Origin: Oscillospiraceae bacterium | GTDB taxonomy: Bacteria > Bacillota > Clostridia > UMGS1883 > UMGS1540 | Length of the DNA: 64,000 bases | Direction of reading: 5' to 3' | Assembly: GCA_015068765.1 (NCBI GenBank) | Contig: SVJY01000005.1 | Coordinates: 1,968 to 65,967 of the forward strand | In this document: positions 22,856-64,000 of the stretch, piece after piece | Numbering within the stretch: position 1 is the first letter of the stretch | How the letters are laid out: the number at the start of each line of letters is the position of its first letter | Program-made: the position numbers and the translations under genes | Notes under the pieces: generated by a model | Told to the model about the DNA's origin: nothing | Seen by the model: only the letters and a program-made list of their open reading frames with translations | Databases searched by the model: none

Positions 22856-23836
22856 CTATTTAAATTCAAAAAGCTTCACATCAATAATTTCATGAAATTT
22901 TTCTTTGGAACCATTCATTTTCTGATACAGAATCGAAGATGCCTTATCTGCCCAACCGCCATCTGTCATACCGACACTGATACTTACACCGGGACAGTAT
23001 AAATGTGCATTGATAGCATCAAAACCCACAACAGGTACCGTTGATACAATGGGATGTGATTTAAATCTTGAAATAATCTCAAAAGCAATCAAGTCAGAAA
23101 ATGCAATAATTGAATCGAACGGAATCTTATCCGTCAGAATTTTTTGCAACACCGATTCCACATAATTGGATTTGGGTTCCATTTCAATAAACATAGCTTC
23201 GGAAACATGTATCCCTTTTTCCTCGAATGCTTTTTGTATGCCTTGAAACCTGTTTCCGCTCGACTCAATATATTTGTATGCGCCGATATACAGCGGATTT
23301 TTACAGCCCTGCCCCGCAAGATACTCTCCCAGAATGTAGCCGGACTTAAAATCATCACCGCAAACATAATCCGTATCTATCTCCGAAAAAAATCTACCAA
23401 TCAGAACATACGGAATATGTAACCCATTTAAAAACTCTATATTTTTTGTACTGTGTTGCGATGGGCAAAGTAAAATCCCGTCAACACTCTTACTACATGC
23501 GGTTATAATGGCATCCCGTTCCGTCTCTTCGCTTTCATTTGTATTTAAAATCAGCACCGTATACTGCATAAGACGCATCTTGTCTTCAATCAGTTTAATC
23601 TGATATGCAATATGCGGATTGGAAATATCGGGTACAATTGCCGCAATTGTTTTTGACTTTCCCGAGCGTAGGGATGTTGCAGATGCGTTTGGAATATATC
23701 CTAATTTTTTCGCGGTTTTTAAAACTTTCTCTCTGGTTTCCTCCGATATGTCGTCTCTTCCGTTCATTACGTGAGAAACCGTTCCTATTGTTACGTTCAG
23801 CTCTTGAGCGATATCTTTTAATGTTACTTTTTTCAT
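22856..23836 (-). CDS. LacI/GalR-family transcriptional repressor
   Basis: 326 aa. N-terminal HTH (VTLKDIAQELNVTIGTVSHVMNGRDDISEETREKVLKTAKKLGYIPN) plus a periplasmic-binding-protein-like sugar-binding core. Confidence 0.9.
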   Translation of the reverse strand: MKKVTLKDIAQELNVTIGTVSHVMNGRDDISEETREKVLKTAKKLGYIPNASATSLRSGKSKTIAAIVPDISNPHIAYQIKLIEDKMRLMQYTVLILNTNESEETERDAIITACSKSVDGILLCPSQHSTKNIEFLNGLHIPYVLIGRFFSEIDTDYVCGDDFKSGYILGEYLAGQGCKNPLYIGAYKYIESSGNRFQGIQKAFEEKGIHVSEAMFIEMEPKSNYVESVLQKILTDKIPFDSIIAFSDLIAFEIISRFKSHPIVSTVPVVGFDAINAHLYCPGVSISVGMTDGGWADKASSILYQKMNGSKEKFHEIIDVKLFEFK

Positions 23837-23880
23837 TCCACTTACCTCTCTGTTTATTAAATTATAATGTATTTTTTACC

Positions 23881-23906
23881 AATTTGTCAATAACTATTGA
23901 CAAATT
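23881..23906. promoter_or_regulatory. 26-bp palindrome carrying two back-to-back TTGACA -35 boxes for divergent promoters (LacI gene and the MPE-GH2 operon)
   Basis: AATTTGTCAATA-AC-TATTGACAAATT. On the plus strand TTGACA is followed by 17 nt and then TACTAT. On the minus strand TTGACA is followed by 18 nt and then TATAAT, upstream of the LacI start. Confidence 0.55.
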
Positions 23907-23920
23907 CTTGATTTTATGCT

Positions 23921-23936
23921 ACTATAACGATATAGT
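23921..23936. promoter_or_regulatory. LacI-type operator candidate (16-bp palindrome centred on CG) overlapping the -10/+1 of the plus-strand promoter
   Basis: ACTATAA-CG-ATATAGT. The 18-mer TACTATAACGATATAGTG recurs in the same promoter context at 46483-46501 on the minus strand. A second palindrome, TGACAA-T-TTGTCA, lies at 23936-23948. Confidence 0.55.
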
Positions 23937-23965
23937 GACAATTTGTCAGAAAGGATGCACTTCAT

Positions 23966-24889
23966 ATGGGAAAGGATATTCTGTTCGGAATTTGTGCGGA
24001 TGCACACCAATCCATACAAAACGATATTTCAGGCAGGATTCGTGCTTTTGTAGAAGAAGCTTCAAAGCGAAAGGCAGATTTTATCATTCAGCTTGGTGAT
24101 TTTGTGTTGCCGGATGCCTCCGGTGAAAAAGCCCTCGCGGCGTGGAATAAATTCAGCGGCCCCCGTTATCATGTGCTTGGGAATCACGATACGGAAATGG
24201 GCGGCAAGGAAGCTGTAATGTCCTTTCAGGGACAGAAAGAAAAATATTACAGCTTTGATGCCGGGGATTATCATTTTATTGTTCTCGATACAAATTACTT
24301 TAAATACGGCGACGATTTTATAGATTATAAAGATCTCAATTATCGTGCTTCCGAATCCTTCAACTGTTACATTCCTCCTTTTCAGCTAAAATGGCTTGCC
24401 GAGGATTTGGATAAAACAGATAAACGTTGTTTTATTTTTACCCATGCTGCACTTTGCGTTGGTGACTGGGTGGTTTATAATTTACATGAATTTATGGACG
24501 TTTTATGGCTCGCCAACCAAAAAGCAGGCTTTAATAAGGTAACGATGTGTTTTTCAGGGCATGACCACGCCGATGCCTATCTTTTCAAAGGCGGTATCCA
24601 TTATGTTCTGGTAAACAGCTTAAGTCATAAATATATCGGCCCGAAATACACACAGCATTCTTCTCATGCGACGACGGTGGAAAAGGAATACGGAAAGCTG
24701 GATTATGTTGTACCGTATAAAGATCCTCTGTATGCATTTGTAAGGCTGAAGGAAAACGGACTGATTCAGATTATGGGAAAACAGTCGGAATATGTAGGGA
24801 ACAGTCCTATGGAATTACACTGGGAGCATTATGCTTCTCCCCAAATTTCGTATAGGGAGGTATGGATGAATGGCATTGGCGAATTATGA
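23966..24889 (+). CDS. Calcineurin-like metallophosphoesterase
   Basis: 307 aa. Motifs GICADAH, QLGDFV, GNHD and GHDH. Paralogous to the ORF at 52473-53555 (shared YYSFD.G..HF.VLD.NY). Confidence 0.85.
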   Translation: MGKDILFGICADAHQSIQNDISGRIRAFVEEASKRKADFIIQLGDFVLPDASGEKALAAWNKFSGPRYHVLGNHDTEMGGKEAVMSFQGQKEKYYSFDAGDYHFIVLDTNYFKYGDDFIDYKDLNYRASESFNCYIPPFQLKWLAEDLDKTDKRCFIFTHAALCVGDWVVYNLHEFMDVLWLANQKAGFNKVTMCFSGHDHADAYLFKGGIHYVLVNSLSHKYIGPKYTQHSSHATTVEKEYGKLDYVVPYKDPLYAFVRLKENGLIQIMGKQSEYVGNSPMELHWEHYASPQISYREVWMNGIGEL

Positions 24890-27095
24890 TATGATACTCC
24901 GCGACGGTTGGAAATTTCATCACGGAGAGCTTGACAGAGTCAGCGAAATGCCCATTAACTTATCCCATGCCACCAGTAAAGCCGGCGGTGCCCTGAAAGA
25001 ACTGGATATGTTCAAAGAAGAAACCGTATGGCAGTCTGTGCGCGTACCCCATGACTGGGCAACGGAGCTGCCTCTCGATAAAGAGGCATATGCCGCAGGC
25101 GGTTTTAAAGAAAGAGGAACGGGATGGTACTTTATTTCTTTTCGTTTGCCCGAAGATGAAATCGGCGATGCCAGCCTTATATTTGACGGCGTACTGGGAA
25201 AATGCGAAGTGTTTGTAAACGGTACTGTGGCAGGACGGAATTTCAGCGGCTATAACCGCTTCAGCTTTGATGTGGGCGATTATCTGCTGGAAAACGAGGA
25301 AAATTCCATCGCCGTTTATGTCGATGCAAGAAGATGGGAGGGCTGGTGGTATGAAGGTGCCGGTCTTTACAGAAATGTTTACTTACAATTTCGTGGCAAA
25401 TCCCATTTAGATATGGAAAAATGCTTTGTCAGAAGCGAAAAAAAGGACGGCCGATGGATGGTAGAAGCCGATTTAATCGGCATCGGCACGGATGAGACCA
25501 TGCAGTATCGCCTTTGTCTTACGGACAAAAAAGGAAACTGCATAGGAACGAAAACCGCTTCAGCAAAGGGAGAAACCATTGCCATGCCGGTGGAAAATCC
25601 GACGCTCTGGTCGCCGGAAACGCCGGAATTATATACCCTGACTTGTACCCTTGAAAAGGATGACGAAATCCTGGATACCTTTAAAGCAGGGGTGGGCTTT
25701 CGCCTAATAGAATGGAAAGCGGACGAGGGTATGTTTTTGAACGGAAAGCGGTATCCCGTAAAGGGAATCTGCTGTCATCAGGATCATGCAGGCGTAGGCG
25801 CGGCAGTACCGGATGCACTCATGGAATACCGCATTTCCATATTGAAATCGCTCGGCATCAACGCCTACCGCTGTGCCCATCACGCTCCGACAGAAACACT
25901 TTTAGAAATATGTGACCGTCAGGGAATGCTTGTGATGGTTGAAAACCGAAATTTTGCGGTATCAGAAGATGTGCTGCGCCAGCTTTCTTCTCTTGTTTAT
26001 GTTTCCAGAAACCATCCCAGCGTATTTTTATACAGTTTATTTAATGAAGAGCCATGGCAAAGAGAAGACCGCGGCAGGCGCATTGCCGAAAAAATGCGGG
26101 CGCACATTTTAAAGCTGGATGATACCCGTCCCATCACCGGTGCGCAAAACGGCGGGCTTCTGGAAAAATCCAATGCTTCGGACGCACTGGACGTCATCGG
26201 TGCAAACTATCATCTTGCCGAGTATGATTCTTCCCACGCACGCACGCCGAACAAGGTTATGATCGGAACAGAAAACTGCCCGACCTATGCTACAAGAGGT
26301 GTGCATGCCACCGACAAGGATAAACAAATTTTTGCAAACTACAGCGAGGACTGGGGGGACTTTTCGGAGTCGCTCACCGAAACGATGCACACGGCATTTT
26401 ATAAGCCATACGTGGCAGGCTGTTTTGCATGGAGCGGTTTTGATTACAGAGGGGAGCCGACGCCTTATGGCTGGCCAAGCGTGCTGTCCCATTGGGGCTT
26501 TACCGATTACTGCGGATTTCCAAAGGACCACGCCTATCTTCTTGCCTCATGGTACAGAGAAGAATTGTTTGTGCACCTCTTCCCCCATTGGAATCATACG
26601 CCGGGCGAGGTGGTGCGCGTATGCGCCTATACCAACGCCGAAAAGGCGGAGCTTTTTGTAAACGACTGCTCGCAGGGCGAAATTGCCGTAACCGACTGTC
26701 GTGCCGAATGGCGCGTGCCCTTTACACCGGGTACGATTCGGGTGTGCGCCGCCCGAAACGGACAGACCGCACGTGACGAAGTGAAAACGGCAGGCGCGCC
26801 TGCTTGTATCCGTATTTTGAATACAACACCGGACAAAGCGGATGCAGATGCGCACATTGTGAATGTGTGTATAACGGATGCGGACGGGACGGTAGTACCC
26901 GACTGCAATAAAACGGTATCCTTTGCCGTACCCGCCGGTACCCTTTTAGGGGTTGGCAACGGCGATCCGAACGGACACCTCAATGAAAAAGCAAACAGCA
27001 TCCCGCTTTTCAACGGCTTTGCGCAGCTTATCACCACCGCCGATGCCGTAACGGTAAGCACCGAAGGACTGCCGGACGCACATATCCGATTATAG
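24870..27095 (+). CDS. Glycoside hydrolase family 2 (beta-galactosidase/beta-mannosidase/glucuronidase-type)
   Basis: 741 aa, cytoplasmic. Sugar-binding jelly roll (WYFISF...LIFDGVLGKCEVFVNG), an Ig-like linker (LWSPETPELYTL), and a TIM barrel with RCAHHAP and the acid/base motif NHPSVFLYSLFNEEP. GGGAGG RBS 9 nt upstream. Overlaps the preceding gene by 20 nt. Confidence 0.9.
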   Translation: MALANYDMILRDGWKFHHGELDRVSEMPINLSHATSKAGGALKELDMFKEETVWQSVRVPHDWATELPLDKEAYAAGGFKERGTGWYFISFRLPEDEIGDASLIFDGVLGKCEVFVNGTVAGRNFSGYNRFSFDVGDYLLENEENSIAVYVDARRWEGWWYEGAGLYRNVYLQFRGKSHLDMEKCFVRSEKKDGRWMVEADLIGIGTDETMQYRLCLTDKKGNCIGTKTASAKGETIAMPVENPTLWSPETPELYTLTCTLEKDDEILDTFKAGVGFRLIEWKADEGMFLNGKRYPVKGICCHQDHAGVGAAVPDALMEYRISILKSLGINAYRCAHHAPTETLLEICDRQGMLVMVENRNFAVSEDVLRQLSSLVYVSRNHPSVFLYSLFNEEPWQREDRGRRIAEKMRAHILKLDDTRPITGAQNGGLLEKSNASDALDVIGANYHLAEYDSSHARTPNKVMIGTENCPTYATRGVHATDKDKQIFANYSEDWGDFSESLTETMHTAFYKPYVAGCFAWSGFDYRGEPTPYGWPSVLSHWGFTDYCGFPKDHAYLLASWYREELFVHLFPHWNHTPGEVVRVCAYTNAEKAELFVNDCSQGEIAVTDCRAEWRVPFTPGTIRVCAARNGQTARDEVKTAGAPACIRILNTTPDKADADAHIVNVCITDADGTVVPDCNKTVSFAVPAGTLLGVGNGDPNGHLNEKANSIPLFNGFAQLITTADAVTVSTEGLPDAHIRL

Positions 27096-27115: not shown

Positions 27116-27844
27116 ATGAAAATTATTGCCGACACGCATACGCACACAATTATGTCCGGACACGCACATTCCACGCTGCTTGAAAACATTCGTGCGGCAA
27201 AAAGCCGCGACCTTTCGTTTTTATGCGTAACAGACCACACAGGCATCATGCCGTGTGCACCGGACAATACATATTTTTCCTGTATGCGCGCCACACTTCC
27301 CGATATATATGAGGGTGTATATTTGCTTCGCGGCTGTGAAGCAAATATACTGGACGAAACAGGACGGCTGGATGTGCCGGAAGGTGTACTGCAAAAGCTT
27401 GAATGGGTTATTGCTTCCATCCACGGTATTTTAACAAAGCCGATGGATGAGATACGGCACACACAGCTCTGGTGCCGGATTGCGGAAAATCCCCATGTGG
27501 ATGTTATCGGGCATTGCGGGGAGGAGGCTTTCCGCTTTGATTATGAGGAGGGCATCCGTGCTTTTGCGGCACATAAAAAAATTGTGGAAATCAATGCGTA
27601 TTCCTTCCGGAGCCGCCCCACAAGCCGCAAAAACTGTATGGAAATTGCGCGGCTTTGCCAAAAGCACGGCGTTCCGCTCGTTATATCCTCTGATGCACAT
27701 TTTGCAGGTGGTGTCGGCGACGTGCAGACTGCGATTGACCATCTTCAGGAGGCAGGCATTGAGGAGCGCAGCATATTAAATGTAAATACAAACCGTTTTG
27801 CACAATATGTAAGTGCAATGACAGGAAGAACTTTTAATGTATAA
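27116..27844 (+). CDS. PHP-family phosphatase (YcdX-like)
   Basis: 242 aa. MKIIADTHTHTIMSGHAHSTL...CVTDH parallels the N-terminus of E. coli YcdX. Confidence 0.85.
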   Translation: MKIIADTHTHTIMSGHAHSTLLENIRAAKSRDLSFLCVTDHTGIMPCAPDNTYFSCMRATLPDIYEGVYLLRGCEANILDETGRLDVPEGVLQKLEWVIASIHGILTKPMDEIRHTQLWCRIAENPHVDVIGHCGEEAFRFDYEEGIRAFAAHKKIVEINAYSFRSRPTSRKNCMEIARLCQKHGVPLVISSDAHFAGGVGDVQTAIDHLQEAGIEERSILNVNTNRFAQYVSAMTGRTFNV

Positions 27845-27849
27845 GGAGA

Positions 27850-29259
27850 ATGAATATGAAAAAAGAAAAACTGACCTTTGCCTTATTTTTCGGCAACCGC
27901 GGCTTCTTTCCGGGAGAACTGATTGCCGCGGCACGCGAAGATATGCAAAGGGTACTTACGGAAAACGGCTACGACTACATCGTCATGGATGAAGCCGCCA
28001 CACGCTACGGTGCTGTGGAAACCATTGCAGAAGGGAAATTATACCACGATTTTCTGGAAGCACACAAAGGGGAATTTGACGGCGTAATCCTTTCCCTCCC
28101 GAATTTCGGGGACGAAAACGGTGCCACGGTTGCACTTCGGGATGCCGGCGTTCCCATTTTGGTGCAGGCATATCCGGACGAAGCCGGAAAAATGGACTTC
28201 GCCCATCGGCGCGATTCGCTTTGCGGCAAAATTGCCATGTGCAACGTACTTCGCCAATGCGGTATCGCCTATACTTTGACGAAAGATGCTACCACTAACC
28301 CAAACAGCGAAGCCTTTAAAAAAGATCTTGCCTATTTTGCCGCTATATGCCGCGTTGTGCGAAGACTTAAGCATTTCAACATCGGTGCCATAGGCGCAAG
28401 AACAACTGCTTTTAAAACGGTACGTGTGGATGAAATTGCCATGCAGCGTGCCGGCATTAACATTGAAACCATTGATTTAAGTCTTGTTTTTGATTTAATG
28501 GACAATGCAGATGCCGACTTACTGGCAGAAAAGAAAAAATACTATGCATCCATTACAGATTTCGGCACATACCCGCCGGAAAAACTGGACAACATCGCAA
28601 GGCTCGGCGTTGCTTTGGATAAGCTGATTGCGGACTATAATCTACAGGCTGTCGGCGTTCGTTGCTGGGAGGAATTCCAAAAGCGGTATGCCATTGCCCC
28701 ATGCCTTGTACTGAGTGACCTTAACGAACGTGGCATTCCGGCGGCATGTGAACTGGATGTAAACAATGCGGTTATGATGTACGCCCTGCAGGAGGCATCC
28801 GGCGCACCCGTAATGCTTCTGGACGTAAACAATAACTACAAGGATGACCCGAGCAAAACCATTCTCTTCCATTGCGCGGCAATCCCCCGCTCCTTCTATG
28901 CTTCCGAAACAAAAATCGGCGAGCATCTTATGTTTAAAAAATCCTTTGGCGAGGGAAGCGGCGTCGGTATTGTAAACGGCGAAATTTGTACGGGCGAAGT
29001 AACGCTCGGCAGCTTTAAGACAGAGGACGGTGTGCTCCACGCCTTTGCGGCTGATGCAACCCTTACAGAGGATGCAATTGAAGACGCATTTTTCGGATGC
29101 GGTATTGTGGCAGAGGCAGAATGTATGCCGAATCTTCTGACACATATGCTTGAAAACGGCTACCGCCACCATGTGGCAATTGCAAAAGGACAATGGGCGA
29201 AGGCAGTCGGCGAAGCCATGGATAAATATCTCGGCTATGTAATAAAAGTAATTCAATAA
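27850..29259 (+). CDS. L-fucose/L-arabinose isomerase-family sugar isomerase (short ~470-aa form)
   Basis: 469 aa. The N-terminal FGNRGFFPGELI..., the later NFGDENG, and the overall length fit the FucI-like family (COG2407 type). Confidence 0.75.
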   Translation: MNMKKEKLTFALFFGNRGFFPGELIAAAREDMQRVLTENGYDYIVMDEAATRYGAVETIAEGKLYHDFLEAHKGEFDGVILSLPNFGDENGATVALRDAGVPILVQAYPDEAGKMDFAHRRDSLCGKIAMCNVLRQCGIAYTLTKDATTNPNSEAFKKDLAYFAAICRVVRRLKHFNIGAIGARTTAFKTVRVDEIAMQRAGINIETIDLSLVFDLMDNADADLLAEKKKYYASITDFGTYPPEKLDNIARLGVALDKLIADYNLQAVGVRCWEEFQKRYAIAPCLVLSDLNERGIPAACELDVNNAVMMYALQEASGAPVMLLDVNNNYKDDPSKTILFHCAAIPRSFYASETKIGEHLMFKKSFGEGSGVGIVNGEICTGEVTLGSFKTEDGVLHAFAADATLTEDAIEDAFFGCGIVAEAECMPNLLTHMLENGYRHHVAIAKGQWAKAVGEAMDKYLGYVIKVIQ

Positions 29260-29274: not shown

Positions 29275-30159
29275 ATGAACAAGCTTGGCATTTTTATGAA
29301 CTTCTGGGAGAAAAACTGGGACGCAGACCACGCAAAATACATTAAAAAGGCGGCAGAAATCGGGTACGACATTCTTGAATTTCAGGCACAGCCCCTGCTT
29401 GAAATGTCGGACGAAAAGCTGAAATTCTTAAAAGCACTTGCGGATGAAGTCGGCATTGAGCTTACGTATAGCCTCGGTCTTGACCCGAATTACGATGTGT
29501 CTTCTCCGGACGAAGCCGTGCGCCTTGGTGGCGTGGATTACCTCCAGAGAATTATTCGCCAGATTCAAAAAATGGACGGCACACTTCTGTCCGGCGTAAG
29601 CTACGCAGGTTGGGGGACTCCAAACTATGTTTTAAATGATAAAAGACCGCTTCTTGAAAATAGCCTCAAAAGCATGCGCGAAATTATCAAAGTCGCCGAG
29701 GAATGCGGCGTTACATACTGCGTGGAGGCCGTAAACCGTTTTGAAGGTTGCCTCATCAACACAGCGCAGGAAGCCCTAGACTATGCGGCAGAAATCGACA
29801 GCCCGAATATCGGCGTACTGCTCGATACATACCATATGAACATCGAAGAAAATTCTATCGGCGATGCCATTCGCCTGGTCGGCAATAAGCTCACAAGCTT
29901 CCATACCGGCGAAAATAACCGTACCGCCCCCGGCAAAGGGCATCTTAACTGGGATGAAATTTTCGGGGCACTTTCCGATATCGGCTATAAAAACAGAATT
30001 GTTTGTGAGCCGTTTGTTATGCAGGGTGGTGAGGTTGGCAGAGATATCCATGTTTTCCGTGACCTTATCGACAATCCTTCGGAAGCCAGAATTGACGAAG
30101 AAGCCAAATATATTTTAAACTTCGAAAAGGAAATGCTGAAAAAGTGGAATTTGGCATAA
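29275..30159 (+). CDS. Ketose 3-epimerase-like protein (D-psicose/D-tagatose 3-epimerase family, xylose-isomerase-like TIM barrel)
   Basis: 294 aa. LGIFMNFWEKNWDADHAKYIKKAAEIGYDILEF closely parallels the DPEase/DTEase N-terminus (GIYYAYWEQEWEADYKYYIEKVAKLGFDILEI, recalled). Also has CVEAVNRFE and LLDTYHMNIEE metal ligands. Confidence 0.8.
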   Translation: MNKLGIFMNFWEKNWDADHAKYIKKAAEIGYDILEFQAQPLLEMSDEKLKFLKALADEVGIELTYSLGLDPNYDVSSPDEAVRLGGVDYLQRIIRQIQKMDGTLLSGVSYAGWGTPNYVLNDKRPLLENSLKSMREIIKVAEECGVTYCVEAVNRFEGCLINTAQEALDYAAEIDSPNIGVLLDTYHMNIEENSIGDAIRLVGNKLTSFHTGENNRTAPGKGHLNWDEIFGALSDIGYKNRIVCEPFVMQGGEVGRDIHVFRDLIDNPSEARIDEEAKYILNFEKEMLKKWNLA

Positions 30160-30194: not shown

Positions 30195-31679
30195 ATGCAA
30201 GCTGAATTATATATAAATAAAAATTTTGTTATCGGCGATATTGACAACCGCATTTACGGTTCTTTTATCGAGCAATTCGGCAGAGCCGTATACGGCGGCA
30301 TCTACGAGCCAGACCATGAAACAGCGGACGAAATGGGCTTTCGGCAGGATGTTCTGGAAAAGGTGCGCAAGCTGCACGTACCCATTGTGCGGTATCCGGG
30401 TGGGAATATTCTGTCCGCCTATAACTGGGAGGACGGAACAGGCGACAAGGCCAAAAGACCGCAAAAGCTGGACCTTGCATGGAACACCATTGAACCGAAC
30501 ACGGTGGGAATTGATGAATTTCAGGCATGGGCAAAAAAGGCAGGCACAACCGTTATGATGTCTGTAAATCTCGGCACACGTGGTGTGGAAGAAGCAAGAA
30601 ATTGTCTTGAATACTGCAACGGGGATACGCCCACGTATTATGCCGATATGCGCCGTAAAAACGGTTTTGAAGCACCCTTTGATTTTAAATTATGGTGTCT
30701 CGGAAACGAGATGGGCGGCACGGCGCAAATGTGCCGGAAAACGCCGGAGGAATACGGCCGCCTTGCGGCAGAAACAGGAAAGGTTATGAAGCGGCTTGAT
30801 CCTTCCATCGAGCTTATCGCCTGCGGCAGTTCTCATCGCAACATGCCAAGATTCGGCGAATGGGAGCTTGTGGTTTTGTCGCACACCTACAGCATTGTTG
30901 ATTATCTTTCCATTCATCAGTATTATGACGCAGGCGCCAATGCATTACCTGACCTTTTGGCAAAAACGGTGGATATGGATGATTATATCAAATCGGTTTC
31001 TGCCATGTGTGATACAATTAAGGCGATAAAAAAATCAGATAAAACCATGTACCTTTCCTTTGACGAATGGAATGTATTTCCGAAGGACTTAAGCCAAAAC
31101 GGTGACGGAAAACGGGAATGCGGTTCCCCCCGTTTTGAAGGTACATATACTTTCGGAGATGCGCTGATGGTGGGCTGTATGATGATAACATTGCAGAAAA
31201 ACAGCGACAGGGTAAAAATAGCCTGTCTTGCACAGCTTGTTAATGCCATTGCACCCATTATGACAAATCCGGGCGGTAAGGCGTGGCTGCAGACCATTTA
31301 TTACCCGTTTCTCTATGCATCCTTGTATGGCAGAGGTACTGCCTTGCGGACAGAAATCAAGTGTGATGCATATTCTACGGAAAAGCATCAAAATGTGCCT
31401 TATTTGGAAAGTGCTGTCATTCATAATGCGGAAAATCATGAGCTTATTTTGTTTGCAGTCAACCGCTGTATGACCGATGGGATGGAGCTTATACCCCTTT
31501 TTGAAAATTTCGGAGACTCTACGCTGATAGAACATATTGAATTATATGCAGAAAATCCGGAAGAAAAAAACACCGCCGAAAAGGAATCTGTCAGGGCGCA
31601 AAATGTTCCCATCGGTGAAAAAATCATTCTGAAAAAACATTCGTGGAACATGCTGCGTTTTTCGTATACAGAATGTTGA
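30195..31679 (+). CDS. abfA: GH51 alpha-L-arabinofuranosidase
   Basis: 494 aa, cytoplasmic. IYGSFIEQFGRAVYGGIYEP, VRYPGGNILSAYNWEDG, the acid/base motif WCLGNEMGG and the nucleophile motif LSFDEWNV. Confidence 0.9.
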   Translation: MQAELYINKNFVIGDIDNRIYGSFIEQFGRAVYGGIYEPDHETADEMGFRQDVLEKVRKLHVPIVRYPGGNILSAYNWEDGTGDKAKRPQKLDLAWNTIEPNTVGIDEFQAWAKKAGTTVMMSVNLGTRGVEEARNCLEYCNGDTPTYYADMRRKNGFEAPFDFKLWCLGNEMGGTAQMCRKTPEEYGRLAAETGKVMKRLDPSIELIACGSSHRNMPRFGEWELVVLSHTYSIVDYLSIHQYYDAGANALPDLLAKTVDMDDYIKSVSAMCDTIKAIKKSDKTMYLSFDEWNVFPKDLSQNGDGKRECGSPRFEGTYTFGDALMVGCMMITLQKNSDRVKIACLAQLVNAIAPIMTNPGGKAWLQTIYYPFLYASLYGRGTALRTEIKCDAYSTEKHQNVPYLESAVIHNAENHELILFAVNRCMTDGMELIPLFENFGDSTLIEHIELYAENPEEKNTAEKESVRAQNVPIGEKIILKKHSWNMLRFSYTEC

Positions 31680-35307: not shown

Positions 35308-35359
35308 TTCCATTGTAAAGAAGCAGACACAACATTCGGTGAATATTTGAGCGTACACG

Positions 35360-35396
35360 CTCGCCAGCTTGCTGACAAAGCCGGCAAGCTGGCGAG
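35360..35396 (+). terminator. Terminator hairpin after the S1 gene
   Basis: CTCGCCAGCTTGC-N11-GCAAGCTGGCGAG, a 13-bp perfect stem, 53 nt after the stop at 35307. Confidence 0.55.
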
Positions 35397-35421
35397 ATAC
35401 TGAGAAACGACATAAAAAGCA

Positions 35422-35460
35422 GATGCTGTAGCATAATGAGATTCATTTTGCTACAGCATC
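35422..35460 (-). terminator. Terminator hairpin after the GH20 gene
   Basis: GATGCTGTAGC-N17-GCTACAGCATC. On the minus strand it is followed by a T-rich run (complement of the AAAAAGC run at 35414-35420). Confidence 0.5.
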
Positions 35461-35480
35461 TTGACGTTAATACTTCATAA

Positions 35481-48361: not shown

Positions 48362-48485
48362 GTTATTACACCTCTCTATATTTTTTGTAATCTTATTATA
48401 TTGATTTTCTATTAGAAATTCAAGGCCATATCTTCTTTAAAAAACCGCAAAAATTCACATTAATCGTTTGGTTTCAGTTTTATAT

Positions 48486-49430: not shown

Positions 49431-49439
49431 GTTGCCACC

Positions 49440-50018
<579 letters not shown>

Positions 50019-54797: not shown

Positions 54798-57554
54798 TTA
54801 TCTATAAACAATTGTCATGAGCGGCGTATAGGTTCTTGCCATAAATAATATTTTATCCCCAATCTCCACGTCTTCCTTGGAGATGGCCTCCACGCTGTTC
54901 TTTTGTTTATCAAACAAATATATCAGATTTGTATAATACATAGTGGATTTTACGCTTATATCCGATGCCTTATCCAGCTGTGCATCATACAGATTTACAT
55001 TTGCCATGAATCCGTATTTTGTGAAATCACAGACTTCGCCGTAGGACATAAGTCTATCACTGTAATTTTTAAGAACTGTGGTGGGCTTTATGGTCCCAAG
55101 CAGGGAGTCTTTTTCGTAATTTGCCGGATAATGACCCCGGAACAGAACACAGAGCTGCACTGCCCAATTATTGGAATCCACGACATAGTATATCACGTCG
55201 CCCGGTTCTATATCCTGTATGCCTATCCTTGCCGGTCTTACGCCGCCTACACAAACCGGATCCTTACTACGATCTGTAGCTGCTTCACCGAACAGAACCT
55301 CAAAATCGTTGTCAGCCGTTACTGTCAGGCTACCGCCGCCCTCCGGCCGGAGAACAAGTTTCGATATGCTCCCCCCTGTGCTTTCATCCAGAGCGGTGGA
55401 TACACTTTCCACAAGAGCCAGTTTTGTCCCCGATATCATATACTCGGTGACGTCTCTTTCGTCCCTTCTGTCCCAGACTAGTACGGAAACCACCTCATCC
55501 TCTCCAATATCATAAAGTGCGATATCGTCATAGATTTCGGTGCCGTCCGTTCCGTGTTTCATCGAATCCCAGCTTTTTGTGTAGTAATCCTTTTCTTCAC
55601 CGGAACCCGGCAGAACAAAGATAACCGTTTCACTCCGGACGAGCCAGTTTCTTCCGAAGGCTTTCATATTGCCACCGATGAAGATTGTGTACTCATCCGT
55701 TCCGTTGTCCAGCTTGTAGCCCGGCTTAATGTATGCATCAAGGCTGAAATCCTCTACTCTGTTTGGACTATTAAAATTATGTCTATAGTCTGTTGCTGTT
55801 TCAACAGAAGAAATCTTTTCGCCGTTTTTCTCATATTTGATGAGCTGCTCGAGGATTACGCCACCGCTTTTCAGCGGACTTGTATCTGCCAGAATTTCTG
55901 CCGCATCCCCATCATGTCCGTTTAGCGTCACCTTATCCATACAGTCCAGTACTTCAACCTTACCCTCATGGGTGAAAAGCCGAAGTTGCGGACGGGAATC
56001 AAGTCCCTTTGTCATGGCGGCATTCAAAAGCCAAGCATAATATGCCGTCGCGGCAGTATCGGTATTCACCGCCGCAACATGACCGAACATGTCAAGGGAA
56101 AATGCCGCCTCTGTTCCAAGTCGAGGCATCTCAAAATCGGGTATCTCTATCAGGCTTTTTGCCACAGGATACTCTGTTTCTCCTATCGTGACAGAATCCA
56201 CAGAAATTTCCGAAAGCGTTCCCGTTACAATGTTGCTTGTTAAAACTACTTTTCTATATTTTCCGTTTGCACTTTCTGCCAAGGAAAGTACATCCCATTC
56301 CTTGCATGCGCTTATATCTGCCGCCGTTCCGTCAGAAAGTGTAAACACAGTGGGAATCGTATTATTGAATGAAATACTTCTCTCCGGCGTGCGGTTTTCA
56401 AGCACGGCAACCGTCATCCTAGAACTTGCAACCCGTTCAACAACGTAGTTTTCATAGCTTTCCACGATAACATATTCTACGCTTCCGCCTTTAGAAATCA
56501 GCTTCACGCTTCCCGTTTCCGGCTGAAGCGCCGCCGCAGAGGGCGTCCGGGGCTCGCCGTTTACAATCACCTGTGCGCCTTGGATGGAGATTCTCTCTGT
56601 TTTCGCATCGCGCTCAAAGCAGAACGTGTTGCCGGTTGTCTCCGCTAAAATTTCGTGGCTATGCACCGTTTCGACCGTGGACTTAGAAGTTAAAGCCAGC
56701 ATGGAAAGGCTACCGTCCGCCTCTTCCTTTACGTAAGCCACAATATGTTCACCGAGTCTTTTGTCTGCATCTGTCGCACCGATGGCTATCGTTTGCCCGC
56801 TTAGCACAACCTCATCCGTGCGAAGGCTTCTTCCCGGTGCGGCAATTTCCTGTGCATAGGTTGCCGTAACCACGCCTTCCATAAGCTTTATGTGCAGATA
56901 ATATGAAAGCGGCGTACGAAGTGCGTCCTCTTCAAATGTATAAGAATCATCACCGTAGCTTGTAGGCTTCAGCATTTCCGTATCCAGTGCATTGTAGAGA
57001 AGCATCGACATATCACCGCGGCATAATTCTCCGCCGCCGATTTCGTCCACGCCATTTAAAATTCCCAGCTGCACGGCACAGCTTACGTAGCCTGCCGGAT
57101 AACCGCCTGCAGCTTCCGCCTTTACGGTATATCCAAGAAGATTTATGACCATTTTGATGGCTTGCTCTCCCGTCACCGGTGCATCCGGCATAAACTCCGT
57201 TTCACTTACGCCATGTATAATGCCGAGACTATACGCTGTCGTAACATAGTAGTACGCCCAATGCTCGTACGGGACATCCGCAAAGCAGTCCCGTTCCTCC
57301 GCCCAGTCCTCGATTCCCATCATGCGGACGATCATTGCAACCATCTCCGCACGGGTAACATTTCCGGGTGCGTCAAATTCTCCGTTTTCCCGTCCTTCTA
57401 CGATACCAAGATTATAAAGCACCGAAACGGCCTTTTCATATTTTGTGCCTGCAACATCCTCAACGGTTGCTGCAAAGGGAGAAATACTGCTGACGGTGGT
57501 GCAGAAAAGCACCACTGCCAAAAGTATGCTCCAAAAAATCTTGTTTATTCTCAT
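54798..57554 (-). CDS. Secreted cell-wall-anchored protein S2: signal peptide, N-terminal triple SLH and ~750-aa unknown body (paralog of S1)
   Basis: The track ORF runs to 57713, overlapping P3. I start it at MRINKIFWSILLAVVLFCTTV (ATG ending at 57554), which gives a proper signal peptide with a GGGGA RBS. SLH repeats follow. The body aligns with S1 (LLYNALDTE..., LSYYL..., C-terminal ...VYR). Confidence 0.8.
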   Translation of the reverse strand: MRINKIFWSILLAVVLFCTTVSSISPFAATVEDVAGTKYEKAVSVLYNLGIVEGRENGEFDAPGNVTRAEMVAMIVRMMGIEDWAEERDCFADVPYEHWAYYYVTTAYSLGIIHGVSETEFMPDAPVTGEQAIKMVINLLGYTVKAEAAGGYPAGYVSCAVQLGILNGVDEIGGGELCRGDMSMLLYNALDTEMLKPTSYGDDSYTFEEDALRTPLSYYLHIKLMEGVVTATYAQEIAAPGRSLRTDEVVLSGQTIAIGATDADKRLGEHIVAYVKEEADGSLSMLALTSKSTVETVHSHEILAETTGNTFCFERDAKTERISIQGAQVIVNGEPRTPSAAALQPETGSVKLISKGGSVEYVIVESYENYVVERVASSRMTVAVLENRTPERSISFNNTIPTVFTLSDGTAADISACKEWDVLSLAESANGKYRKVVLTSNIVTGTLSEISVDSVTIGETEYPVAKSLIEIPDFEMPRLGTEAAFSLDMFGHVAAVNTDTAATAYYAWLLNAAMTKGLDSRPQLRLFTHEGKVEVLDCMDKVTLNGHDGDAAEILADTSPLKSGGVILEQLIKYEKNGEKISSVETATDYRHNFNSPNRVEDFSLDAYIKPGYKLDNGTDEYTIFIGGNMKAFGRNWLVRSETVIFVLPGSGEEKDYYTKSWDSMKHGTDGTEIYDDIALYDIGEDEVVSVLVWDRRDERDVTEYMISGTKLALVESVSTALDESTGGSISKLVLRPEGGGSLTVTADNDFEVLFGEAATDRSKDPVCVGGVRPARIGIQDIEPGDVIYYVVDSNNWAVQLCVLFRGHYPANYEKDSLLGTIKPTTVLKNYSDRLMSYGEVCDFTKYGFMANVNLYDAQLDKASDISVKSTMYYTNLIYLFDKQKNSVEAISKEDVEIGDKILFMARTYTPLMTIVYR

Positions 57555-60378: not shown

Positions 60379-63300
60379 TTAGGGGAAAGATATCGCTTTC
60401 GTCTGCGGGCATATACTGCTGATATCGTCCCATACAAACGCTTTATAAACGTATTCTCCTCCATCTGCGGGCTTGGCAAGTGCCGCTGATGCACGAAGCG
60501 GTGTTTCGCCCACTTCAGTTGGATTATCCTTCTTTTCTTCCAATGAATTTATGATGGCAACCATTTCAGCTGTATCCGTACCCGTTTCTATTTCATCGAG
60601 ATAAAAATTATTTTCTCCATATACTCTGTACCGCGCCAGAATAACAGTTAGTGTACGGTATTTATTTTCTGCACTGTAATCCGTCCCAAACGCTACGAGG
60701 TCAGCCTTCACTTCGTCGTCTGTTTCAGAAACCGTAAGCTTATCTTCTGCAATCCCGAAAGATATATTATCGATTTTCACGATATCGTCACCACTGGCAC
60801 AGCCAAAGAAAAACGAGTTATTGCTTGCATCAAGAGGATTTGTATAATACATGGAATAGTCTCTGCGCCATACGCTACCCGTAGACCCGATGGTTTTGCC
60901 CGGTGCCCATACAATCGGGGGTGCACTTGCACCAATGTATGCATATGTACTATACCTGTTTCCTACATAATCAAACTGTAAAACACCGCGACGGCCGCGA
61001 AGCTCAGGAGCGTTATTTATAGACAGATTATAGTAGATTTCTCTCGGTGTATCCTGAAATTTTTTTGCATGAATGCTTAAGTAATGATTCCCATCCGGCT
61101 CCATCATAACAGAGGCAATCTCTTCTTCGCCCCAGTTAAACGAGTTACCTTTGTAATACCATGCGCCTGCCGGCTTATAATCTCCTGCAAAGCCTTCAAG
61201 GTCACCATTTCTAACATAATCTGTTGTTACATATGCCGCAAAGTCATCTATCGCCACTTCCCCTACACCGGAAAAGGTGACACGGACGATAAAGTTCGCT
61301 TCCGCTGCATTCGTATAGCACAGCATCATTTTTCGCCATCCCATGGGCGTTCCATCACCATATGCCGTTTTTACGAACCAATCTGTGGACGCAAGAACGG
61401 TACTGCCGTTGGCAGATACCAGCTCCAGCTTAACGCCCGATCCGGTCGTGAGGCCGGTCAGGTTCATAAATGCGGTAATATCCAGCTTTCCTGCCGGGAG
61501 GGTTACGGGTTTTGATATCGTCACTGTGTCAGTAGAACGGCTACCGGAAAGCACCAGTGCCCCCGCACTACCGCCATGGGTTTTTGCCGGATCGGTTTCC
61601 TTTGAAAAAGAAGCCGTACCGCTTTTGGAAACCGCATAGCCATCCGGCTTGCCACCGGCAAAGATTTCCATTCCCGAATTCTCAACAAAATTCTCTTCGT
61701 CCTCCCCGGAGCATTTCATCTCGTTCACGGCTTTAAAATAGTTCCAGAATTTTTCTTTTGAAAGTATACTGAAATCTACCGTCTCCGCAGGGGTAATCTC
61801 CAAAAGGGCAACGCCGTGCTTCGGCACCGTGACCGTCACAGAACTCGTTGTTCCTGTAAAGTTTTCACCCTCTTTTCCGGAAACGTATGCCGCCTTGTAA
61901 CCTTTGAGAGATATACTGCCATCAAAGCTTGTAAGCGGAACGGTAATTTCTTTCTCCTCTGCCGTACTCTGATTCATAACAATCAAATACAGTTTACCGT
62001 CCTTTATATAACTGTGATACATTACATCCGCACCTACATAATGGGAAAAGCCGGGATATTCCTTCGTGACAAAATGGCGGAATACATCTTCCTGCTCTTT
62101 TTCCGCAAAAGCTCTGATACCTTCATAGATATTTGTTTCTGTAACATCGGGAAGCCTGATACTTATTCCGTCTACCTTCATGGCATCATCCCATGCATAA
62201 TATCCATGAGACGTAGCCCCTGCCATATAAGCCTGGTAAATCATGTGTCTTTCCGCATCCGCATCGGGCAGATAATCAATATGTTTGAAGGCGTGCAAAA
62301 GCTCGAGTGTTGGTTTTATTTCTTCTGCCGCCGCCATTGTAATACGCGTTGTGTCATACACATGGGATGTATTCATCTTAACGCCTTTCATCCCTTCCGT
62401 TGCAGGCAAGTAAGGGTCATTGGCAACATAATCACAAACCTTTTTTGTATCCTTCAAAAACTTGGATGTGCATTCCACAATATACACAGGATGATTATCA
62501 TCAATATCACGAATCAGTTTATAAGCCTCTTTTAGCTCCGGAAGCGGATCCGGCAAACTGAAATACGGCTCATCTGCAACCGCCCATCCGAAAACGCGTG
62601 GGTCATCCTTATATTTTGTAACCAATTCAATGGTTTTTGCACGCAAATCCGGATGTACGGCGGACTTAGATGGTTCATACAGCACCATAAGCACCTTCAT
62701 GCCCTTCTCGGCGGCACGGCTCAGCATCCCTTCGTTTCCTTGCAGTACGGTAATGCCGGCATTCTTAAGTTCTGCATAATCCTTTTCGTCATAAGGATGA
62801 TAGGCGGCTACTGCATGAAAGGGAGCTTCTTTGGGAGCTTGAAATACACCATCTTCTCTGATATACTTCGGGCGGGCATACTTATAGATCGTGTCTTCTT
62901 TTGTGTATAGTGCCTTTCCGTCTTTGTCTTTAAGCACCGCCCGAAGTATATACTCTTTTTTCAGTTCTGTAAGAAGTGTTGTGTCATATTCAAATGTAGC
63001 TTCACCGTTTTGATCCAATATACTTTCTCTTTGTTCCAGCACTTTATCTTCGGCCATCAGCGAAAACACTACACTTCCGCCTATAGCCTCCGGATAATAC
63101 TCCGTCAACGCTTTAACAGAAGCAGTTCCCTTCTCCGCCTCCGGATAATAGAAATATTGGTCGGGGCTGATTGAAAGCTCTTCAGCCGGCTGTACCATAC
63201 AGATGGAAGCGTTATCATAATAGCAAACTTCGCCATCCTCATTTAGGAGCCGAAAATAAACAGAAACACTTTTGGCATTTGTGGGTGCCTTGAAATTATA

Positions 63301-63810
63301 GAGCATTTCCTGCCACTTTCCGCTTGTAGTGGTAACGTTAAACGTATAGACCTGCCATGCCATGGATAAGCCCGGTAAAGCCTCGGGATAAAACTCCAGT
63401 TTCACCGTCATGCCGCTTCGTCCCGAATCCTTTCGAATCATGGTACGAAGCTGATAAACAGCGCCGGGGTTTGTCTCAAAGGTCTGTGAGATATACGGAT
63501 TTGCCGCAGGAGAGGCACCGCCCACAAGTTTTAGGGAATTTCCTTCGTAGGCTTTCTCGTCACTAATGATAAATGCACCTGATCCGTCCGTTCTTCCAAA
63601 AGCACTGCATCCCCATTTTTCAGGTCTTCCTGCTGCATCCAAATCTTCAAGATCTCCGTTTTTCAGGAGTTCTTCCGTTCCTTCCACCGCAGGAAGCTTA
63701 ATACTAGTGATGCCTAATGGAATCTCTTCCTTGCTTTCTGCCCTGCCGGGCATGATGAAAACAGGAACCAACATACATATGCAAATTAAAATTGAGAGCG
63801 TTCTTTTCAT
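60379..63810 (-). CDS. Modular secreted protein P4: same CBM plus subtype-2 TIM-barrel-like core as P3, but the SLH triplet is replaced by ~480 aa of additional CBM-like/beta-sandwich modules
   Basis: About 1143 aa from MKRTLSILICICML (the track start is at 63837). The core is highly similar to P3 at both aa and nt level. The C-terminal half has NG.LE.F-type jelly-roll patterns and ends ...YVYKAFVWDDISSICPQTKAISFP. Confidence 0.8.
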   Translation of the reverse strand: MKRTLSILICICMLVPVFIMPGRAESKEEIPLGITSIKLPAVEGTEELLKNGDLEDLDAAGRPEKWGCSAFGRTDGSGAFIISDEKAYEGNSLKLVGGASPAANPYISQTFETNPGAVYQLRTMIRKDSGRSGMTVKLEFYPEALPGLSMAWQVYTFNVTTTSGKWQEMLYNFKAPTNAKSVSVYFRLLNEDGEVCYYDNASICMVQPAEELSISPDQYFYYPEAEKGTASVKALTEYYPEAIGGSVVFSLMAEDKVLEQRESILDQNGEATFEYDTTLLTELKKEYILRAVLKDKDGKALYTKEDTIYKYARPKYIREDGVFQAPKEAPFHAVAAYHPYDEKDYAELKNAGITVLQGNEGMLSRAAEKGMKVLMVLYEPSKSAVHPDLRAKTIELVTKYKDDPRVFGWAVADEPYFSLPDPLPELKEAYKLIRDIDDNHPVYIVECTSKFLKDTKKVCDYVANDPYLPATEGMKGVKMNTSHVYDTTRITMAAAEEIKPTLELLHAFKHIDYLPDADAERHMIYQAYMAGATSHGYYAWDDAMKVDGISIRLPDVTETNIYEGIRAFAEKEQEDVFRHFVTKEYPGFSHYVGADVMYHSYIKDGKLYLIVMNQSTAEEKEITVPLTSFDGSISLKGYKAAYVSGKEGENFTGTTSSVTVTVPKHGVALLEITPAETVDFSILSKEKFWNYFKAVNEMKCSGEDEENFVENSGMEIFAGGKPDGYAVSKSGTASFSKETDPAKTHGGSAGALVLSGSRSTDTVTISKPVTLPAGKLDITAFMNLTGLTTGSGVKLELVSANGSTVLASTDWFVKTAYGDGTPMGWRKMMLCYTNAAEANFIVRVTFSGVGEVAIDDFAAYVTTDYVRNGDLEGFAGDYKPAGAWYYKGNSFNWGEEEIASVMMEPDGNHYLSIHAKKFQDTPREIYYNLSINNAPELRGRRGVLQFDYVGNRYSTYAYIGASAPPIVWAPGKTIGSTGSVWRRDYSMYYTNPLDASNNSFFFGCASGDDIVKIDNISFGIAEDKLTVSETDDEVKADLVAFGTDYSAENKYRTLTVILARYRVYGENNFYLDEIETGTDTAEMVAIINSLEEKKDNPTEVGETPLRASAALAKPADGGEYVYKAFVWDDISSICPQTKAISFP

Positions 63811-63870
63811 ATAAGCATTCCTTTTAAAGTATTTCATATAAAGTGCGCTTTGAAAATTATGCCCTCACTT

Positions 63871-64000
63871 TTAAGAAAGTGTTTCAGATGTAATCTGCGG
63901 GCTTAAGCTATTAATATAATCCCATGCAAATGCCTTGTATACATATTTCCCGTCATCTGCAGGCTTATCCAGGCTGGCAGTGGCACGAAGGGGTGTTTCA
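63871..64000 (-). CDS. C-terminal end of a further paralog (P5, P4-type tail); the gene runs off the right edge
   Basis: Reverse translation gives ...ETPLRATASLDKPADDGKYVYKAFAWDYINSLSPQITSETLS*, which aligns with the P4 C-terminus (ETPLRASAALAKPADGGEYVYKAFVWDDISSICPQ). Confidence 0.6.
   Translation of the reverse strand, partial: ETPLRATASLDKPADDGKYVYKAFAWDYINSLSPQITSETLS

Follow-up and report, generated by a model that had tools for sequence, protein, structure and literature searches.

A probable pair of carbohydrate-utilisation modules in an uncultured gut Oscillospiraceae genome, each with a wall-associated cassette of uncharacterised P and S proteins

What is a gut bacterium doing with some 41 kb of DNA in which giant cell-surface proteins stand among ordinary sugar-handling genes, and what exactly has been duplicated there? 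The question is raised by positions 22856-64000 of a 64,000-nt stretch of contig SVJY01000005.1 (Oscillospiraceae bacterium, assembly GCA_015068765.1), the whole of which is called the window here. The original prediction had described the region as an island in which SLH-anchored proteins are coupled to cytoplasmic glycosidase, phosphoesterase and sugar-isomerase genes, one functional system duplicated and diversified as modules A and B. Our answer is that the region is, on balance, probably carbohydrate-utilisation DNA of an uncultured gut member of the Oscillospiraceae/Ruminococcaceae, its two adjacent modules resembling Gram-positive polysaccharide utilisation loci (gpPULs). The reusable unit is smaller than the prediction had it: a secreted, wall-associated cassette of a protein with carbohydrate-binding modules only (CBM-only), tandem P enzymes and one S protein, with SLH anchors in P1-P3. 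This genome holds two copies of the surface cassette, each beside different cytoplasmic finishing enzymes. The type of locus is known; the P and S families are uncharacterised.

The gene assignments come from a map of open reading frames (ORFs) and from Pfam and NCBIfam scans of the window, which reproduced the predicted gene list, families, order and strands throughout (Table 1). The minus-strand operon of module A runs CBM-only, P2, P1, GH20 and converges with the plus-strand operon that S1 closes. Module B is a single minus-strand run with intergenic gaps of 9-124 nt, in the order P5, P4, P3, S2, DegT, MPE2 (MPE, metallophosphoesterase), GH38, Lyx_isomer, PfkB, XI-like. The repeated logic of the two modules was borne out by BLASTP, which returned true paralog pairs: identity is 32% for S1 and S2, aligned from end to end (E 3e-124), 31% for MPE1 and MPE2 (E 1e-51), 62% for P1 and P2, 71% for P3 and P4, and 34% for P1 and P3. 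So was the division between surface and cytoplasm, as signal-peptide-like N-termini, read by eye, occur only on S1, S2, P1-P4 and the CBM-only protein, and on none of the glycosidases and phosphoesterases of the modules. The description of the giants as SLH-anchored holds for S1, S2 and P1-P3, but not for P4 and P5, which have no SLH. Each module does have its paralogous S protein with an N-terminal SLH region, supposedly of about 975 aa, but S2 probably starts at ATG 57554 (918 aa) rather than at GTG 57713.

The two operons of module A are linked by their promoters. Positions 23869-23938 and 46483-46552, which lie upstream of the two convergent operons, are inverted copies of one another (70 nt, 71% complementary), and both promoters have the form TTGACA-17-TGnTACTAT with an identical 18-nt stretch in common. 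Within this stretch lies the 16-bp ACTATAACGATATAGT, found in the window only at 23921-23936 and 46485-46500, a number of occurrences that none of 100 shuffles matched; read by eye it is palindromic at 14 of 16 positions around a central CG and is of LacI type. A LacI-family gene stands divergently beside the plus-strand operon, with a promoter of its own at 23890-23861 on the minus strand (sigma-70-like, 12/12). The shared operator-bearing promoter that had been predicted is thus present, and it supports the view that module A is co-regulated through one operator at two promoters, with the LacI protein as the predicted binder. Between the S1 and GH20 stop codons lie two hairpins, the first (35359-35396) read by eye and the second (35421-35461) an inverted repeat with 19-nt arms, 95% complementary; they are probably terminators serving both operons. 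P2 and P1 are separated by 72 nt that contain a further hairpin (41078-41111), which could attenuate or terminate transcription within that operon.

What, then, are the P proteins? P1 consists of a signal peptide, two CBM4_9 modules, an Ig-like domain, a (beta/alpha)8 barrel, a beta-sandwich, three SLH and a C-terminal part of ~190 aa, and P2 of a signal peptide, three CBM4_9, a core of the P1 type and three C-terminal SLH. The ~190-aa domain that follows the SLH in P1 (residues 1022-1210, 37415-37984) is absent in P2, and Pfam gave it only sub-threshold adhesin- or pilin-like hints (E 0.06-0.09). In P4 (residues 707-1152, 60379-61719) and in the tail of P5 (63850-64000), a common C-terminus of ~450 aa without Pfam matches takes the place of the SLH. 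Beyond SLH and CBM4_9, no Pfam or NCBIfam model reaches the P proteins of the window, the core included. The AlphaFold2 (AF2) model of the P1 core (residues 371-830; predicted local distance difference test score, pLDDT, 96.3; predicted template modelling score, pTM, 0.92) consists of an Ig-like beta-sandwich, a (beta/alpha)8 barrel and a C-terminal beta-sandwich, and the eight beta/alpha units between core residues 128 and 327 are those of a clan GH-A barrel. Foldseek placed it with GH5, GH2, GH13 and GH66 barrels, GH5 and GH2 at E 1e-17. A single P sequence searched against the Protein Data Bank (PDB) gave hints of GH5 and GH158 only (GH158 at E 0.2); a first P profile gave GH158 at E 1e-12 and GH2 beta-glucuronidases at E 2e-9, and a profile of the barrel only gave E 2.6e-14 and E 1.5e-11, respectively. 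The P core can be placed as a barrel of glycosidase type whose nearest clan is GH-A and whose closest families are GH158 and GH2, and it lies outside the characterised families. The claim of a surface catalytic core that belongs to no nameable family therefore stands in so far as the characterised families include neither P nor S, and gives way where P finds its place near GH158 and GH2 and where S, as described below, appears to be non-catalytic.

The family is large. An exhaustive profile search returned at least 150 clusters at 50% identity, the best 150 representatives all scoring above 648 bits. Because the profile also has SLH and CBM columns, which swell the raw counts (80,066 at E <= 1e-3 and 3,732 at E <= 1e-30), only the top 150 were relied on; the nine matches of a word-indexed search, which missed the window's own paralogs, reflect a sensitivity artefact. 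With a hidden Markov model (HMM) of the core only, the P core was found in 170 of 172 family sequences, the top 150 included, for a total of 171 core domains. The carriers are mostly uncultured gut Clostridia, with at least one cultured species, Paenibacillus hodogayensis, and the members are currently annotated as "hypothetical" or "carbohydrate-binding/SLH domain protein".

The S proteins are of another kind. S1 has a signal peptide, an SLH region of ~170 aa and an all-beta body of ~790 aa; in its AF2 model (pLDDT 84) everything after residue 185 is all-beta, arranged in small beta-barrel and beta-sandwich domains. Anchoring through SLH is found by Pfam, by a PDB match to Sap (E 7e-12) and by Foldseek, which superposes the region on the SLH domains of SpaA and Sap with target-normalised template modelling (TM) scores of 0.66-0.80. 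Beyond the SLH, neither Pfam nor NCBIfam has a model for S, internal sequence repeats were not found in the body, and Foldseek against PDB and BFVD returned SLH domains and weak OB/CSD/EF-P-like barrels only. The family comprises 56 clusters at 90% identity, most of 960-1014 aa with a few shorter, all with SLH as the sole Pfam domain, and the named members come from Ruminococcaceae or Clostridia metagenome-assembled genomes (MAGs). Conservation drops from 0.7-0.8 in the SLH anchor to 0.41-0.55 at the distal end. An enzymatic role for S was considered and rejected on the all-beta model, the lack of a catalytic fold among the Foldseek matches and the invariant residues of the body, which are mostly Gly or aromatic. 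From the model, S is best described as a substrate-regulated, wall-anchored, putatively non-catalytic surface protein.

Whether P and S belong together was asked of other genomes. A scan of species-representative genomes returned 80 loci, several of which share one genome; 21 S loci were examined, 19 with S homologs over most of the length and two with truncated S. P adjoins S in nine of the 21. In L004, L005 and L023 the order is CBM-only (or an unannotated protein of ~490 aa), P, P, S with gaps of at most 35 nt, and L007 has a convergent arrangement resembling module A. The loci found through P read AraC, GH20, CBM-only, P (L082); AraC, GH20, CBM-only, P, P (L083/84); AraC, an unannotated 477-aa protein, P, P-like, GH35, GH20 (L085); CBM-only, P, P, GH35, GH20, AraC (L086); and, in Paenibacillus hodogayensis, AraC, Gfo/Idh/MocA, solute-binding protein, P (L081). 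CBM-only proteins of 360-520 aa precede the P genes in L004, L082, L083 and L086, and the 477-aa protein of L085 is 25% identical to the CBM-only protein of L086. GH20 is the most recurrent neighbour of the P cassettes, lying near P in six of about 15 P loci (the window, L016, L082, L083/84, L085 and L086); GH35 recurs in L085 and L086, and AraC or LacI regulators flank the cassettes in L016 and L081-L086. Two associations thus recur elsewhere, the CBM-only, P, P, (S) cassette and the link between P and GH20.

Some of these loci also touch other parts of the window. In L005 (181-987) a fragment is 96% identical at the protein level to the window's GH106-like protein (11740-14781), and next to it come an unannotated 486-aa protein and then a P-P-S cassette, its S only 45% identical to S1. 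Alongside a further P/S cassette, L016 shows partial synteny with window positions 1381-6080. It seems that these cassettes undergo turnover, or are mobile, among close relatives. A gene of the ASRT family (Anabaena sensory rhodopsin transducer, PF07100) is found at 1381-1746 of the window, near the P locus of Paenibacillus hodogayensis (L081:1-321) and in L016 (20481-20852), there within ~5 kb of P/S genes. It stands beside an M24 peptidase in the window and L016, and its recurrence may be coincidental.

The main alternative is that the region belongs to envelope biology: S would form an alternative S-layer or S-layer-like coat, P would be wall glycosidases that remodel the cell's own secondary polymer, rich in N-acetylhexosamine (HexNAc), or its S-layer glycan, and the nucleotide-sugar genes would serve glycan synthesis. 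The SLH regions of S1, S2 and P1-P3 fit this, as the SLH domains of Sap and SpaA, which S1 matches, bind a pyruvylated polymer containing N-acetylmannosamine (ManNAc), and a HexNAc polymer would go well with the Asp-Glu dyad of P, taken up below. Conservation is lowest in the distal part of S, and copies multiply, one goat-rectum MAG having six S-pattern loci (full-length S in L002, L004, L005 and L006, shorter in L016, partial in L042). Outside the SLH region, however, neither the sequence search nor the structure search linked S to the assembly domain of Sap (9g93), and S1 ends a LacI-controlled operon of cytoplasmic catabolic enzymes whose operator is common to the P1/P2 operon. The contexts of the S homologs are varied, among them RecG, cardiolipin synthase and, recurrently, Gfo/Idh/MocA oxidoreductases; the closest homolog of S1 in the genome collection (L001:1569-3859, 58% identical) directly follows genes for an FnlA-like dehydratase and a UDP-GlcNAc 2-epimerase, and in the window the DegT gene (53626-54783) abuts S2 within the catabolic run, again a nucleotide-sugar type of enzyme beside S. 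The oxidoreductases and the nucleotide-sugar genes among these neighbours favour an envelope role, but the P cassettes elsewhere are flanked by AraC, cytoplasmic-type GH20 or GH35, a solute-binding protein and sugar catabolic genes, and the P proteins bear as many as three modules of the CBM4_9 type, which are typically found on enzymes that attack polysaccharides outside the cell. Taken together, an envelope function is unlikely.

The original prediction went further in another direction, with S, P, MPE, exo-glycosidase and isomerase as a single system duplicated whole and diversified for two substrates, S and P being its new surface catalytic core. S, P and MPE are each paralogous across the modules, MPE stands directly upstream of an exo-glycosidase in both (overlapping GH2 by 20 nt, and 15 nt away from GH38), and a sugar isomerase and a TIM protein of the AP_endonuc_2 type occur in each. 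Nevertheless, the isomerases of the two modules come from unrelated families, as do the glycosidases that flank MPE, S has no catalytic fold, and its homologs turn up in unrelated contexts. In the co-occurrence check that had been proposed, P recurs with S and with GH20, but MPE recurs with neither S nor P: MPE is absent from all 21 S loci and five P loci, and among 80 metagenomic loci of MPE homologs, whose sampled neighbours are mostly other phosphoesterases, S or P occurs in none and GH38 in one. Neither MPE nor the isomerases, GH2, GH51 or GH38 recur with S or P in the other genomes. Because the S-P association recurs and MPE never joins it elsewhere, the duplicated and conserved unit is the surface cassette and not the 41-kb system, and duplication of the whole is quite improbable.

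How the P enzymes might work is suggested by the barrel itself. In the numbering of the core, D209/E210 corresponds to P1 Asp579-Glu580 (codons 39308-39313), and position 295, the canonical nucleophile position, to P1 Gln665 (codon 39053-39055). Among the 171 P cores, E210 and Y263 are found in every one, D209 in 169 and D261 in 167. In profile alignments E210 aligns with the acid/base Glu of GH158 and with that of the beta-glucuronidase Asn-Glu motif, and it is the preceding residue, Asp in 169/171, that differs from the Asn of GH-A. The clan GH-A nucleophile, a Glu at the C-terminal end of beta7, was not found in the P cores, where position 295 is Gln in 129 of 171 and Glu in seven, and position 294 is Leu or Asn. 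The register of beta7 is anchored by a HMMER alignment to human beta-glucuronidase (1bhg) that reaches up to the KP motif, and the nucleophile of that enzyme, E540, lies a few residues past its end. The GH158 profile matches span beta2-beta6 only (query 21-147 of 259), short of similarity at the level of the family; as the GH158 match stops at beta6 and that to human beta-glucuronidase just before beta7, neither covers the nucleophile.

A consecutive Asp-Glu pair is familiar from GH123, in which the Asp stabilises the 2-acetamido group and the Glu is the acid/base of a substrate-assisted reaction that has no enzyme nucleophile (PMC11087588). The GH20 of the window carries the canonical pair (D210-E211, invariant in its alignment), and the P cores carry a consecutive Asp-Glu of the same type, a motif in common and not evidence of membership. 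Substrate-assisted catalysis through the 2-acetamido group, with cleavage of beta-HexNAc linkages, would be the most economical mechanism for P, and is a possible assignment that falls somewhat short of a probable one. That the P proteins are instead pseudo-enzymes, dead, lectin-like binders whose GH-A hydrolase ancestor lost the nucleophile, in a cassette that only captures glycans, is very unlikely, for while almost every member has Gln, Leu or Asn at the beta7 position and the proteins are rich in CBMs, the near-invariance of E210, Y263, D209 and D261 across clusters less than 50% identical is the pattern expected of a working site, and substrate-assisted families likewise do without an enzyme nucleophile (PMC11087588).

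A fuller proposal is more tentative and, taken whole, rather doubtful: P may be a new family derived from GH-A in which the Glu nucleophile was swapped for substrate assistance (Asn-Glu to Asp-Glu, and the beta7 Glu to Gln), made up of wall-anchored endo-beta-N-acetylhexosaminidases which, with the CBM-only protein and a non-catalytic S, would form a capture-and-cut cassette reiterated in many copies, with varied downstream enzymes, in uncultured gut Clostridia. Its logic would parallel, on the Gram-positive side, that of the repeated surface modules of Bacteroidota PULs.

In the carbohydrate-utilisation reading, the P enzymes would cut a polymeric glycan at the cell surface, where S and the CBM-only protein may retain the substrate, display it or arrange the enzymes on the wall, and the fragments would be imported by a transporter encoded beyond the window. 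Breakdown would be completed in the cytoplasm by GH20, the GH2 beta-galactosidase-like enzyme and the GH51 arabinofuranosidase of module A, and by the GH38 alpha-mannosidase of module B, and the released sugars would enter glycolysis through the isomerases, the epimerase and the PfkB kinase. For module B the families suggest a route from mannoside to mannose, fructose and fructose phosphate. Module A would be switched as one by the adjacent LacI repressor, acting on the identical operator at both promoters.

Several points weigh against this reading, or against its HexNAc element. The scan of window ORFs of 100 aa or more, both within the 41 kb and outside it, turned up no sugar transporter of the ATP-binding cassette (ABC), phosphotransferase system (PTS) or major facilitator superfamily (MFS) type, so that import is an assumption of the model. 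No substrate can be named for the modules, and the MPE, PHP and HAD phosphoesterases and the DegT aminotransferase have no role in the model. The operator has no copy in the part of module B inside the window, the module B promoter lying beyond it. The HexNAc reading of P is an argument from motif logic, GH51 and GH2 of module A point to arabinogalactan-type sugars, and GH20 is absent from the available flanks of about nine of the 15 P loci, module B included. Homology to GH20 was rejected, as P has no PF00728 match and hhalign of the P profile with the GH20 alignment gave a probability of 0.3. GH123 and its relatives are defined by DUF4091 together with the Asp-Glu motif (PMC11087588), and GH185 and GH163 by the DUF4838 domain (PMC10570127). 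The P core is without any Pfam match, hence without either domain, and P1-P4 were rejected as GH123 members despite the motif and as GH185/GH163 members likewise; GH123 structures are also not among the listed PDB sequence-profile or fold matches of the core. Since P is not homologous to GH20 and lacks DUF4091 and DUF4838, the likeness to these enzymes would be one of mechanism. A further candidate for comparison with P is GH111, the family of Bacillus circulans keratanase II, an SLH-bearing endo-beta-N-acetylglucosaminidase type that uses an oxazoline.

Table 1. Features of the region and the basis of their assignment (window coordinates).
Feature	Position	Strand	Basis and remarks
LacI-family repressor	22856-23836	-	Pfam LacI HTH and Peripla_BP_1; divergent from the MPE1 operon
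Plus-operon promoter	23897-23936	+	TTGACA-17-TACTAT, TG-extended; the 16-bp operator ACTATAACGATATAGT (23921-23936) overlaps it
MPE1, calcineurin-type metallophosphoesterase	23966-24889	+	Pfam Metallophos; cytoplasmic, no signal-peptide-like N-terminus; 3' end overlaps the GH2 start
GH2, beta-galactosidase-like (GalA-like)	24870-27095	+	five Pfam GH2 domains; NCBIfam GalA 756 bits, under the 900-bit cut-off; cytoplasmic
PHP phosphatase	27116-27844	+	Pfam; cytoplasmic
FucI-family (FucI-like) isomerase	27850-29259	+	Pfam; cytoplasmic
D-psicose/ketose 3-epimerase	29275-30159	+	Pfam; NCBIfam PsicseEpim 385 bits, over the 300-bit cut-off; cytoplasmic
GH51 alpha-L-arabinofuranosidase	30195-31679	+	Pfam; NCBIfam ArfA 648.6 bits, over the 625-bit cut-off; cytoplasmic
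HAD phosphatase	31699-32331	+	Pfam; cytoplasmic
S1	32374-35307	+	Pfam SLH only; last gene of the plus operon
Two hairpins, probable terminators	35359-35396 and 35421-35461		where S1 and GH20 converge, between their stop codons
GH20 exo-beta-N-acetylhexosaminidase, GcnA/GH20C type	35481-37280	-	Pfam Glyco_hydro_20 and Glyco_H_20C_C; best PDB matches 2epk (E 1e-96) and 5a69 (E 6e-89); cytoplasmic
P1	37415-41047	-	Pfam CBM_4_9 and SLH
P1 catalytic core, residues 371-830	38558-39937	-	AF2 model, Foldseek, PDB profile search
Hairpin with 13-bp stem	41078-41111		T-rich tail on either strand (5 T in an 8-nt window); P2-P1 gap
P2	41120-44734	-	Pfam; BLASTP against P1
CBM-only secreted protein, 529 aa	44748-46337	-	Pfam CBM_4_9 only; first gene of the minus-strand operon
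Second promoter/operator copy	46483-46552	-	operator 46485-46500; upstream of the CBM-only/P2/P1/GH20 operon
Truncated serine-recombinase (resolvase) gene, 90 aa	46649-46921	-	Pfam Resolvase, E 2.5e-16
XI-like TIM protein (IolE-like), PfkB (fructokinase-like), Lyx_isomer cupin, GH38 alpha-mannosidase	47528-52457	-	Pfam, NCBIfam; cytoplasmic
MPE2 metallophosphoesterase	52473-53555	-	Pfam, paralogy with MPE1; ends 15 nt upstream of GH38
DegT/DnrJ/EryC1-type sugar aminotransferase	53626-54783	-	Pfam E 1e-71; every NCBIfam match under its cut-off; directly downstream of S2
S2, 918 aa from ATG 57554 (probable start)	54798-57554	-	signal peptide, SLH region, all-beta body
P3	57661-60363	-	signal peptide, CBM-like domain, P core, three SLH
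P4	60379-63837	-	P core and ~450-aa C-terminus without Pfam match; no SLH
P5, C-terminal end only in window	above 63850, to 64000	-	tail similar to the P4 tail by eye

A few searches came back empty. For MPE2 and for the FucI-like isomerase no solved relative was found at E <= 0.01, Rfam and tRNA scans of the window gave no matches, and look-ups of the exact proteins P4 and P2, made for the gene that precedes P5, found no record; P2 (P0066) carries the database name 'hypothetical protein E7408_01740 [Ruminococcaceae bacterium]'.

The recombinase scar that had been placed between the modules is there. The 90-aa ORF matches only positions 1-83 of the 145 of the Resolvase domain, so the gene is a remnant, with neither a complete resolvase catalytic domain nor a DNA-binding domain, in an interval with a GC content of 0.40. 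Beside it lie a 78-aa ORF (46974-47210, minus strand) and a 59-aa ORF (47352-47531, plus strand), both without Pfam matches, which may be remnants of the same mobile element. The term island itself did not survive, as the base composition (GC 0.44-0.51) is that of the flanks, falling lower only at 18-24 kb and 46-48 kb. The first of these patches (18000-24000; GC 0.36-0.375 vs 0.45-0.51 around it) spans ROK, GH63, a Fic-domain gene (21099-21851), a C-terminal fragment of a Mutator transposase (21863-22444) and LacI, which suggests that insertion or rearrangement has left a scar immediately upstream of module A.

Carbohydrate genes extend upstream of the reported region, over ~3-21 kb. A third catabolic run on the minus strand (11740-20872) comprises GH63/MGH1-like, ROK kinase, DUF6259, PHP-like and GH106-like rhamnosidase-type genes; it is another case of a phosphoesterase adjoining a glycosidase, the PHP-like match being weak (E 0.005, under the Pfam cut-off), and it has no S or P genes. 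Farther upstream (3127-6080), an AraC/PocR-type regulator is followed by a putative glycosidase of GHL6/GH42M type (693 aa).

P, if active, is a large family of carbohydrate-active enzymes (CAZymes) as yet without a classification, and assigning its activity would re-annotate the metagenome homologs in at least 150 clusters. Its active site would show cleanly how, in nature, a clan GH-A barrel can turn to nucleophile-free catalysis. The S family, with ~800 residues that have no domain model, would represent a class of wall-anchored, substrate-regulated proteins not hitherto studied. Otherwise the locus, with its cytoplasmic exo-glycosidases, isomerases, kinase and LacI control, is conventional.

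How does this locus compare with systems already known? The GH158 endo-beta-1,3-glucanases (PDB 9oro, 6pal) and the GH2 beta-glucuronidases share with P the (beta/alpha)8 barrel, a Glu in the acid/base position at the end of beta4 in the motif x-E-P/S, a conserved Tyr after beta6, a KP motif before beta7 and a flanking beta-sandwich domain; the beta-glucuronidases are among the best fold matches of P, and GH158 is not in the 50 fold matches listed. P differs from both in having Asp-Glu for Asn-Glu and Gln, Leu or Asn for the nucleophile Glu, as well as in its CBM4_9 and SLH architecture, and the Pfam GH models all stay under threshold on the P proteins of the window. Enzymes of the GH20, GH123 and GH84 type resemble P in their TIM barrel, the consecutive Asp-Glu at its rim and the lack of an enzyme nucleophile (PMC11087588), a likeness that, in view of the undetectable homology to GH20, may be one of mechanistic logic. 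S, for its part, is organised like Sap of Bacillus anthracis and SpaA of Paenibacillus alvei, with an N-terminal signal peptide, an SLH region and a large all-beta body, but its 790-aa body matches no Sap/EA1 assembly domain or solved structure, and, unlike Sap and SpaA, it is encoded by the distal gene of a repressor-controlled catabolic operon and in several copies per genome.

The closest overall parallel is with the gpPULs, which join enzyme, regulator and transporter in one locus; SLH-anchored multimodular glycanases are known from such systems in Clostridia and Paenibacillus. The enzymes are present here (GH2, GH51, GH20 and GH38, along with P), as is the regulator (LacI and its operator), and secreted, CBM-bearing, anchored putative glycanases stand with cytoplasmic exo-glycosidases and catabolic genes in a co-oriented, co-regulated block. 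In contrast to the gpPULs, the locus is without the third component, a transporter, and its surface enzymes belong to an uncharacterised family. The other difference lies in the company that these enzymes keep, as here the apparently non-catalytic S and the CBM-only protein form with them a cassette that is reiterated, several to a genome.

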